A stretch of 64,000 nt of DNA from Escherichia coli (GTDB taxonomy: Bacteria > Pseudomonadota > Gammaproteobacteria > Enterobacterales > Enterobacteriaceae). Shown one piece after another: positions 34,401 to 37,400 of the stretch (position 1 is its first letter; each line of letters opens with the position of its first letter). The position numbers were made by a program. The stretch is taken from the NCBI RefSeq assembly GCF_036507355.1, contig NZ_AP027877.1, one strand, 5' to 3'.

Positions 34401-37400
34401 TAGTATCAGTTATTTCTCTGATCTCTTTAGTCATTTGGGAGTCGACCTCAGAGAACCCGATTCTTGATCTCAGTTTGTTTAAGTCCCGTAATTTCACCAT
34501 TGGTATTGTGAGTATCACATGCGCGTATTTATTTTACTCTGGAGCGATCGTCCTTATGCCGCAGTTATTCCAGGAAACGATGGGGTATAATGCGATATGG
34601 GCCGGACTTGCTTATGCGCCCATCGGCATCATGCCACTATTAATTTCACCTTTGATAGGACGTTATGGCAACAAAATAGACATGCGGTTGTTAGTGACAT
34701 TTAGTTTTTTGATGTATGCGGTTTGCTATTACTGGCGTTCTGTGACATTTATGCCAACGATTGATTTTACAGGTATCATTTTGCCGCAGTTTTTTCAGGG
34801 ATTCGCCGTTGCCTGTTTCTTTTTACCCTTAACAACGATTTCGTTTTCAGGCTTGCCAGATAATAAATTTGCCAATGCCTCGAGTATGAGTAATTTTTTT
34901 CGTACCTTGTCAGGATCAGTTGGTACATCGTTGACAATGACGCTGTGGGGGCGACGCGAATCGTTACACCATAGTCAGTTGACAGCAACCATCGATCAAT
35001 TTAACCCTGTATTTAATTCATCGTCACAAATTATGGATAAATACTATGGTTCGCTTTCAGGAGTTCTTAATGAAATTAATAATGAAATAACCCAGCAGTC
35101 ACTTTCTATTTCTGCAAATGAGATTTTCCGTATGGCGGCTATTGCTTTTATCTTACTTACGGTTTTGGTTTGGTTTGCGAAACCGCCGTTTACAGCGAAA
35201 GGCGTTGGGTGATGGTAAAAGCAGGGGGTTATAGCGGGTAAGACCGGGGATCTTAAGTCTGCGCCATCGGCAGCATCGCTCACCCAGGGAAAGGATGGCG
35301 ATGCTGCGTTGAAATGTTATTAACGGCCTTTTGCCAGATATTGATTCATCTCTTCTTCCGGCACCATTCCACCTCCCGTCGCCCACACCAGATGAGTGGC
35401 ATTACGCAGTTGTTCTGCGCTGAAACCGTGCATCAGTTGGTAACTTACTGATGCACACACGCGCTGAGGTCCGGCCATACCCGCCAGTGCCGAAGGTTCA
35501 AGACGAATACCTTCTTCCTGCGCCAACCCAAGAATTACAGTGCGGTTAGATGGCGGAAAGCCGGTCAAGAGTGTTTGGGGAGGTGGGGAAGGCGGTGATT
35601 CTGCATTTGCTCCACAACCAATACAATTTATAAAGACCTTGGCTAAGCATAAAAAAGCTATTTTTGGGTTTGAACCTTATGGATCAACTATGCAAGTAGT
35701 TGAGTTTGACTTGTCTGAGATTGATAAGGTTGTGGAAAAAATTTCACAGTCTTGCAATTGGAAATAACAAAAAAATCTCATATGAACCCAGTTGGCTCTG
35801 GGTTTTTTATTTCTGTTGTCTATAATGTATTCATAATTTTTACTGGGATACAGTGCACATAAAATCCCAATTGCGGTAGGACGATAACTGGATCAGGTGG
35901 AGGCACTTACGCAAGAATTGATAGTATTAATTTGCATAGAGCAACGCGAAGTTATTTATAAATTAACTGATATAGAGTACTAGATGTAATCCGAACCGGT
36001 TATGATTCGTCACCAATTTTGCAAGAGGCTGGGTAGGTAAGCTATTGGATACCGTAGGTAGCAAAAATATAGAAGGAGGGGAAGAATTGCTAAACTCGAG
36101 CATTCACTTAAATCTGAGTTATTTATTGTTAAGATATAATACACTTTGAATAATAGAGGCTATATGACAACGAAAATAAGCAAAGATGATAAACATCTGC
36201 TTGATCCTTATTTAAAATGGCTTGCAAACAAGAAGCTAATGGTTGCCTTCTGGTTGGTGCTAATGATATGTGGTTGCATATATGCATATATAGAAAATGA
36301 TTGGTCACTTCTTCCCCGATTCGGATGTTTAGGCATAATGATTGGCACATTGCTTACTCTTTCTCCGCTTTTTGCAGAAGGTATCTACCTATCAAGGCGA
36401 GAAGCATGAATCGCCACGGATAATCTAGACACTTCCGAGCCGTTGATAATACTGGTTTTCATATTCTGTCGGTGACATCTGATCGCTGGAACCATGCCGA
36501 CGCTTACTGTTATAAAACATTTCGATGTAATCAAAAATATCGCTGCGGGCTTCTTCCCGCGTTCCGTAGATCTTTTTCTTTATCCGTTCGCGTTTCAACA
36601 ACTGGAAAAAGCTTTCTGCAACCGCATTATCATGGCAGTTACCGCGACGGCTCATGCTGCCATCCAGGCCGTGTGATTTCAGGAACGACTGCCACTCATG
36701 GCTTGTGTACTGACTGCCCTGATCCGAATGAACCAGCACCTGTTTTTGGGGATTACGGCGCCATACAGCCATCAGCAGTGCGTTCAGGACAATGTCCTTT
36801 GTCATCCGGGATTGCATGGACCAGCCGATAATTTTGCGTGAGAACAGATCAACAACCACGGCAAGATACAGCCAGCCTTCGTGGGTCCTGATGTAGGTTA
36901 TGTCCGTTACCCAACGCTTATCCGGAGCATCCGGATTGAACTGTCGCTGGAGCCTGTTGGGCGACACGATACTGGCCTCGCCTTTACGTGCCCGCGGGCT
37001 CCGGTATCCGACCTGAGCCTTTATCCCGACACGTTTCATCAGTCGCCAGACTCTGTTCACTCCGCACTGTTGCCCGCTGTCCCGCAGATCCAGATGGATT
37101 TTGCGATAACCATAGACGCATCCCGATTCCAGCCAGAACTGTTTAATCTGCCCTGTCAGCCTCAGGTCTGCCTGATGGCGTTGTGAATGCGGCTGCTGAA
37201 GCCAGGCGTAAAAACCACTGGGATGAACATCCAGCACCCGACAGAGCAGGCGAACAGGCCAGCAACAGGTGTTGTCACGGATAAAGGCGTACCTCAGTCG
37301 GACAGCTTTGCGAAGTACGCCGCGGCTTTTTTTAATATGTCCCGTTCGTCGGTAACCCGCTTCAGCTCTTTCTGGAGACGGCGGATCTCGGCCTGAGCAT

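Follow-up and report, generated by a model that had tools for sequence, protein, structure and literature searches.

A probable deletion joint between dsdA and argW prophage DNA at the native D-serine locus of Escherichia coli

The handling of D-serine is a niche determinant in Escherichia coli, setting urine and brain against the gut and involving repression of the LEE type III secretion system (PMC4366372, PMC4699771). In UPEC, dsdA mutants build up D-serine and show poor growth when exposed to it, YhaM being no substitute for DsdA (PMC4699771), and sensitivity to the compound varies with background and medium (PMC4699771, PMC7486766). In the csc type, as far as Jahreis 2002 and Moritz & Welch 2006 are cited in PMC4366372, cscRAKB replaces dsdC and the 5' part of dsdX in EHEC O157:H7 and many E. 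coli. Second dsdCXA copies are placed at leuX islands of K1/B2 strains by Moritz & Welch 2006, as relayed in PMC4366372 and PMC7545054. In EHEC, where dsdA is intact but silent, tolerance is reached via the loss of CycA and SstT or through upstream deletions that give dsdA a new promoter (PMC7486766).

Here we compare these systems with a locus from a 64,000-nt stretch of E. coli DNA (NCBI RefSeq assembly GCF_036507355.1, contig NZ_AP027877.1), the whole of which is referred to as the window. Like the csc type, the window has been hit in the hypervariable argW-dsd interval and has lost the regulator and the transporter, with inducible D-serine catabolism expected to be absent. In the csc type, however, dsdA is intact and can be switched on by upstream deletions (PMC7486766), whereas 85% of the gene is gone from the window, and the partner of the truncated locus is prophage DNA, with no csc genes, instead of the csc genes themselves. 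With null mutants in dsdA, engineered or spontaneous, of UPEC CFT073 and K-12 the locus shares a predicted state of no deaminase, intracellular accumulation of D-serine and inhibition in minimal media (PMC4699771, PMC4569052). Those mutants nevertheless keep dsdC and dsdX, while the window locus has neither, and uptake would need to proceed by CycA, SstT and YhaO (PMC7486766, PMC4699771).

The D-serine locus of the window had been called destroyed in a first-pass annotation, and the native site between emrY and argW indeed holds nothing of it but a catalytically dead stub. This 3' remnant of dsdA (35320..35525, minus strand) comprises the stop codon (35320-35322), codons 376-442 and 2 nt of codon 375, equivalent to residues 375-442 of the 442 of DsdA plus the stop. 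With 67 whole codons the stub is ~68 codons long, within a few bases of the last ~70 codons originally estimated, and codon 375, cut to 2 nt, still encodes Leu by chance. An alignment with full-length dsdA, the check proposed with the annotation, matched the stub to the 3' end of the gene only, with 0 mismatches over 206 nt to the dsdA of strain A30; identity to other E. coli dsdA genes continues until 35525 and then ends abruptly. The first 374 codons (85%) are missing, and with them K118, the lysine that binds PLP (motif SGSIKARGG), and all other parts of the catalytic fold. Because K118 and the fold are missing, the stub cannot be an enzyme.

The stub is part of a minus-strand ORF of 82 aa (35320-35568), the C-terminal end of which is the DsdA C-terminus, as had been recognized from the sequence at the outset. 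Residues 14-82 of this ORF match positions 373-441 of the 444 in the NF002823 profile (E = 5e-24), and its last 69 residues match residues 374-442 of 3SS7, the 442-aa structure of E. coli DsdA (E = 1.5e-39). The similarity of the stub to DsdA is far beyond chance, and its scores of 84.8 bits (NF002823) and 83.7 bits (TIGR02035) lie below the curated cut-offs for the two DsdA families, 246 and 368 bits, respectively. The stub occupies the orthologous position, convergent with emrY and at a spacing to emrY equal to that in A30, LR-51 and TB06052. Since both this position and the near-identical sequence match dsdA, the stub is a genuine dsdA pseudogene remnant and not a functional DsdA member. 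A scan for promoters and terminators around the stub returned none above shuffled expectation, and there is therefore no sign that the chimeric ORFs are expressed. Queries with dsdA, dsdX and dsdC (tblastn and blastn over the whole 64 kb) found no match besides the stub, which bears out the initial remark that dsdC and dsdX are absent. The csc region of LR-51 likewise had no match in the 64-kb window. No dsdX 3' remnant was matched by tblastn in the window and dsdA is cut at codon 375, so the locus is not of the csc type.

The surroundings of the stub are otherwise those of the native site. The left neighbour, emrY (33674..35212, plus strand), is intact in the ORF list, convergent with dsdA and located in the same place in A30, LR-51 and TB06052, and evgS, evgA and emrK further to the left are all intact as well. 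On the other side of the joint, collinear phage DNA in a single orientation extends to intS and argW, followed by yfdC, mlaA and fadL. In other E. coli the interval from emrY to argW contains either dsdA-dsdX-dsdC or dsdA, a dsdX remnant and cscRAKB, and then the element that occupies argW. Where an IntS-type prophage occupies argW, the torI/xis and early-gene end of the prophage points towards dsd, with intS lying directly against argW. Both versions of the interval occur among the strains nearest to the window: dsdCXA is intact in 33F4, and TB06052 is of the csc type, which makes the ancestral state read from these strains, full dsdCXA or csc-type, contradictory.

The boundary of the stub is a putative deletion joint at 35524..35525 (no strand), a 2-bp microhomology ('CA') common to dsdA and phage. 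In a three-way alignment of the window, the dsdA of A30 and the prophage of E. coli S21, supported by BLAST, the DNA is dsdA-derived up to 35525, shows phage identity from 35524 and is phage-derived by 35526. The first-pass annotation had described what lies upstream of roughly codon 14 in the fragment as unrelated to dsdA; the breakpoint held to within a few bases, but the supposedly unrelated DNA is the interior of an argW prophage. From 35524 on it matches the S21 prophage and phage IdasGreatGrand (PP925829) at 99.0-99.5% identity. The gene interrupted by the joint encodes a 164-aa protein (phrog_1848, 'TagO' in PGAP); the cut is at residue 85, and the last 80 codons (residues 85-164) remain at 35526..35767 on the plus strand. 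In intact phages this gene follows directly on cI, cro, O, P and ren, ahead of the nin genes. At 35525/35526 there is no IS end, no att site and no longer repeat. With truncated genes as both partners, the arrangement bears the signature of an illegitimate deletion joint at the level of microhomology.

A short distance into the phage DNA, the 5' part of a small phage ORF (36146..36406, plus strand; 405 nt in S21 and IdasGreatGrand) is cut off by an IS3-family element (36407..37635, minus strand). This ISEhe3-like element is 1,229 bp long and is bounded by 38-nt imperfect terminal inverted repeats, TGAATCGCC...GGCGATTCA. It has the two transposase ORFs (37294-37578 and 36425-37237, both minus strand) and the TG...CA repeat ends of its family, and is 89% identical to the annotated ISEhe3 in phage SfIV. 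Only two IS copies are present in the 64 kb, this one and an IS4 at 236-1564. Shigella was considered as a source in view of an IS and of the lack of the sequence in the E. coli collection, but two IS copies speak neither for nor against it. No target duplication is found at the element, the flanks reading ...gaagca / IS / ggaagag... with gca against gga as the adjoining triplets, and the flanking DNA belongs to two different, non-adjacent phage genes of the nin region. Because of the lack of a matching duplication and the non-adjacent flanks, the element is the mark of another rearrangement, distinct from the dsdA joint, which lies 881 bp away. Beyond it lie the 3' two-thirds of a nin-region gene for a 195-aa protein (37636..38036, plus strand; phrog_27260), the 5' end of which was removed by the IS and a full-length version of which is present in the prophage of E. 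coli LR-50. The resulting IS-truncated ORF of 145 aa (37599-38036) had no Pfam or PADLOC match.

The remainder of the prophage is collinear and incomplete. The nin region and late antiterminator (38222..40089, plus strand; ybcN/ninB, ninE, ybcO, rusA, ylcG and Q) are collinear with the fragment at the dsdA joint and in equal orientation, and Q is followed by a lipocalin gene and ybgA as cargo and then by lysis, terminase, portal and protease genes. Two further deletion joints were recognized against the full-length argW prophage of LSC52. At 50135..50138 (no strand) the major capsid gene passes into the 3' end of the tail-sheath gene with ~4.2 kb absent, as judged from collinearity in BLAST against L006 together with its annotation. 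At 51102..51114 (no strand) the tail-assembly/tape-measure region is joined to the baseplate gene ymfQ through a 13-nt overlap, with ~7.4 kb absent. Neither of these internal joints occurs in any complete RefSeq E. coli genome. A predicted O-antigen O-acetyltransferase (53196..54320, minus strand; phrog_3333, E = 2e-86) is carried as prophage cargo beside the integrase, and the LSC52 prophage has an acyltransferase at the equivalent position. The integrase IntS (54461..55654, minus strand; phrog_1) is annotated equivalently as intS in LR-51, LSC52 and TB06052. The attachment site of the prophage is argW, a tRNA-Arg(CCU) gene identified with ARAGORN (55780..55854, minus strand). An IntS-type tyrosine integrase thus lies beside the 3' end of argW, both on the minus strand, which identifies an argW prophage with the layout seen in LR-51 and LSC52.

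A k-mer search of the window for a second copy of the argW 3' core found none, and no phage early region was found in the 64 kb. Because a second att core and the early region are lacking, and the capsid-sheath and tape-measure-baseplate stretches are deleted, the argW prophage is a defective remnant. It thereby resembles CPS-53 (KpLE1) of K-12, likewise an IntS-type prophage at argW that has shrunk by internal deletions and IS, with intS and an O-antigen-modifying cargo gene beside argW. In K-12, however, the decay did not reach the host flank, and dsdCXA has remained intact, whereas in the window the deletion would have run from the prophage into host genes.

We propose that the dead stub is a pseudogene which very probably arose in one illegitimate (microhomology) deletion from the interior of dsdA into the decaying argW prophage. 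The ancestor would have had the order emrY, dsdA, dsdX, dsdC (or the csc variant), prophage xis/early end, late genes, intS and argW, and the deletion would have fused dsdA, at codon 375, with the interior of the phage gene located just downstream of the replication genes. The material removed would comprise most of dsdA (85%), dsdX and dsdC in full, the second att site and the phage genes for excision, recombination, immunity and replication, a missing stretch of perhaps ~13-16 kb when pieced together from LR-51, S21 and A30. One deletion could explain the window because both outer ends are native in order and orientation and the middle is wholly absent. The ancestral arrangement was rebuilt from other strains, by analogy with which both the gene order and the origin in a single event are suggested, and several successive deletions could also give the joint. 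Following a single deletion of the kind proposed, the prophage would be locked in place and non-inducible and would have decayed on, by two internal deletions and one IS, with D-serine catabolism lost as collateral of the process. The mechanism is an ordinary one, in which a prophage at a tRNA site decays and the erosion extends into the adjoining host operon.

Other explanations differ in what they predict for the rest of the chromosome. The strain would still deaminate D-serine if a second dsdCXA copy resided elsewhere, for example on a leuX island in the style of K1/B2 strains. Such copies exist, as PAI tables place DsdA in leuX islands of 536, UTI89, RS218 and UM146 (PMC7545054), and the 5' 1.1 kb of dsdA occurs at 5,664 places in 5,389 complete genomes, so that up to ~5% may have more than one. 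The known carriers of duplicates are, however, of the K1/B2 type, whereas the best matches to the core DNA of the window are the calf E. coli 33F4, O145:H28 strains and a fresh-water isolate; with no second copy within the 64 kb, we regard this explanation as very unlikely. The joint could also be one breakpoint of an insertion, inversion or translocation, with the remaining parts of dsdA, dsdX and dsdC surviving at another site. Lambdoid prophages are frequent substrates of chromosomal inversions, and the window would show one side of such an event. An inversion would nevertheless put foreign chromosomal context on one side of the joint, and instead emrY on the left and intS-argW-yfdC on the right keep their native places and relative orientation, as a simple deletion predicts. 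The homology at the joint is only 2 bp, so that homologous recombination between prophages did not make it, and survival of the genes at another site is highly improbable.

An IS-adjacent deletion mediated by the nearby IS3-family element deserves consideration for the reason that the element, 881 bp away and with neither a matching target duplication nor adjacent flanks, evidently took part in some rearrangement. That rearrangement is a different, second joint, for which the element accounts; the dsdA joint itself has no IS end, and the intervening 881 bp are collinear phage DNA, 99.5% identical to IS-free phage, which leaves the IS a slim chance of being the agent. The junction could finally be a chimeric join made during assembly. 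It sits in unique sequence, though, and a 32-nt string across it is identical in two separately deposited drafts, GCA_905398585.1 (CAJPYR010000042.1) and GCA_021425525.1 (DAFKWY010000052.1), which over 16.5 kb are 99.92-99.99% identical to positions 19883-36405/36482 of the window. The contigs of both drafts, ~35 kb in length, are broken at flanking IS copies: they stop at the ISEhe3-like element and not at the joint, and from their length the opposite end falls at the IS4 copy at 236-1564. The same junction in at least two independent drafts therefore excludes an assembly artefact, to which we attach a negligible probability. A single microhomology deletion from dsdA into the prophage is thus retained as the preferred reading.

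The lineage that carries the joint is small, since its EvgS allele is on record in only five contigs. The junction string was found in 0 of the 5,426 complete RefSeq E. coli genomes, and neither among GTDB species representatives nor among JGI metagenome contigs. The core DNA beside the joint reaches no more than 98.9% identity with a complete E. coli genome, and no complete genome of the same lineage with an intact locus was found for comparison. Look-ups of exact protein products matched for EvgS and for the 86-aa junction ORF of the gene caller. They were empty for five ORFs, including the 82-aa chimeric ORF, EmrY, the capsid fusion (49923-50579) and a shortened yfdF-like product, and the empty results are explained by the gene caller's choice of start together with 1-2 substitutions.

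At least 80% of dsdCXA is present in 2,718 (50%) of the 5,426 complete E. coli genomes, and most of the remainder (about 2,680) have dsdA with a 3' piece of dsdX, the truncation of the csc type; about half of complete genomes are consequently without dsdC and the 5' part of dsdX. The 5' 1.1 kb of dsdA is present in 5,389 genomes. The body of dsdA is absent from 37 (0.7%) and partly present in a further 10, and the genotype described here is therefore among the rare ones. In two of the rare dsdA lesions an event of the same type seems to have taken place independently. In BKQWHE (NZ_CP170298) a 105-nt dsdA stub is fused to a truncated P22-like prophage gene (a lytic transglycosylase fragment), and in Z226-6 (NZ_CP159641) a 372-nt stub lies 66 nt from a phage head-binding (tailspike-type) gene. 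As in the window, emrY is intact in both strains and is followed by a short 3' dsdA stub and then by a decayed prophage on the argW side. They differ from the window in the length of the stubs (105 and 372 nt versus 206) and in their P22-like neighbours, in place of a lambdoid nin-region gene. It is conceivable, although improbable in our estimation, that complete loss of dsdA, unlike the common loss of dsdC and dsdX after which dsdA stays silent but reactivatable, is positively selected in certain lineages, with deletions of the argW prophage as a recurrent route. Were this true, selection might act through D-serine accumulating as a signal, or prophage-disarming deletions might be favoured and take dsdA along, and decay of the argW prophage would drive metabolic niche restriction rather than being neutral erosion.

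The native locus, with only the stub left, can no longer make D-serine deaminase, and loss of the enzyme at the level of the strain is likely. The reactivation route by upstream deletion would be closed at the native site and, unless a second copy exists, tolerance could arise only by transport mutations (cycA, sstT). The allele itself was found in no annotated collection searched; it is a further case of the well-known variation that affects the hypervariable argW-dsd interval, and ordinary genome erosion. Most dsd-negative strains retain dsdA in an intact but silent form, which upstream deletions can awaken (PMC7486766). The lineage falls within the <1% of E. coli in which the native site has lost the enzyme gene itself, and the junction sequence may serve as a specific marker of this small clonal lineage. 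The case would show how the decay of a tRNA-linked prophage can remove adjoining host metabolic genes, apparently more than once at this site.

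The defective lambdoid, IntS-type argW prophage has lost DNA at internal sites as well as at its dsdA border. One deletion joins capsid to tail sheath sequence with a 4-nt overlap at the joint (50135-50138), and another joins the tail-assembly/tape-measure region to the baseplate region with a 13-nt overlap (51102-51114); both joints were absent from all complete E. coli genomes searched. The prophage also carries an ISEhe3-like IS3-family element of 1,229 bp (36407-37635). Its flanks (36146-36406 and 37636-38036) contain no matching target-site duplication and belong to different phage genes that are non-adjacent in every relative examined, so the element is probably the trace of a deletion or recombination event within the prophage in which an IS took part.

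The plus strand at 37599-38036 holds a truncated copy of phrog_27260, a nin-region gene of unknown function that encodes 195 aa when complete, as it is in the prophage of E. coli LR-50 (L010, 3814-4401). The truncated copy had no match in Pfam or PADLOC, and it contains an R-x4-H motif (RNNLFH) that recalls HEPN nucleases. A separate observation concerns E. coli LR-51, where 16 nt of the argW 3' core are repeated (L003, 10362-10377). The repeat does not fall between csc and torI but a short way into torI, which suggests that argW in LR-51 carries elements in tandem or nested one in another.

Against 5,426 complete E. coli genomes, the core chromosomal DNA on either side of the prophage (1-35525 and 55855-64000) reaches a best identity of 98.9%; the nearest matches are the calf isolate 33F4, O145:H28 strains and an isolate from fresh water in the Galapagos. 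The gene-position index had no record of the exact EmrY protein, and the window appears to come from a sparsely sampled lineage. Adjoining nupC is a plus-strand IS4-family transposase gene of 442 aa (236-1564); judging by the length of their contigs, the same-lineage draft assemblies GCA_905398585.1 and GCA_021425525.1 break at this copy, from which we infer that it is common to the lineage. Between mlaA and fadL, a minus-strand yfdF-like gene (58093-59373) encodes a protein only ~80% identical to the version in LSC52, a strain with a fuller argW prophage, and is probably a pseudogene, given the in-frame stop codon read at 58540-58542.

Despite the decay of the prophage, its cargo genes are intact, comprising a lipocalin-family gene with a ybgA-family gene (40245-41921) and an O-antigen O-acetyltransferase gene that adjoins intS (53196-54320). 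Their preservation hints that the remnant has been retained for this cargo.
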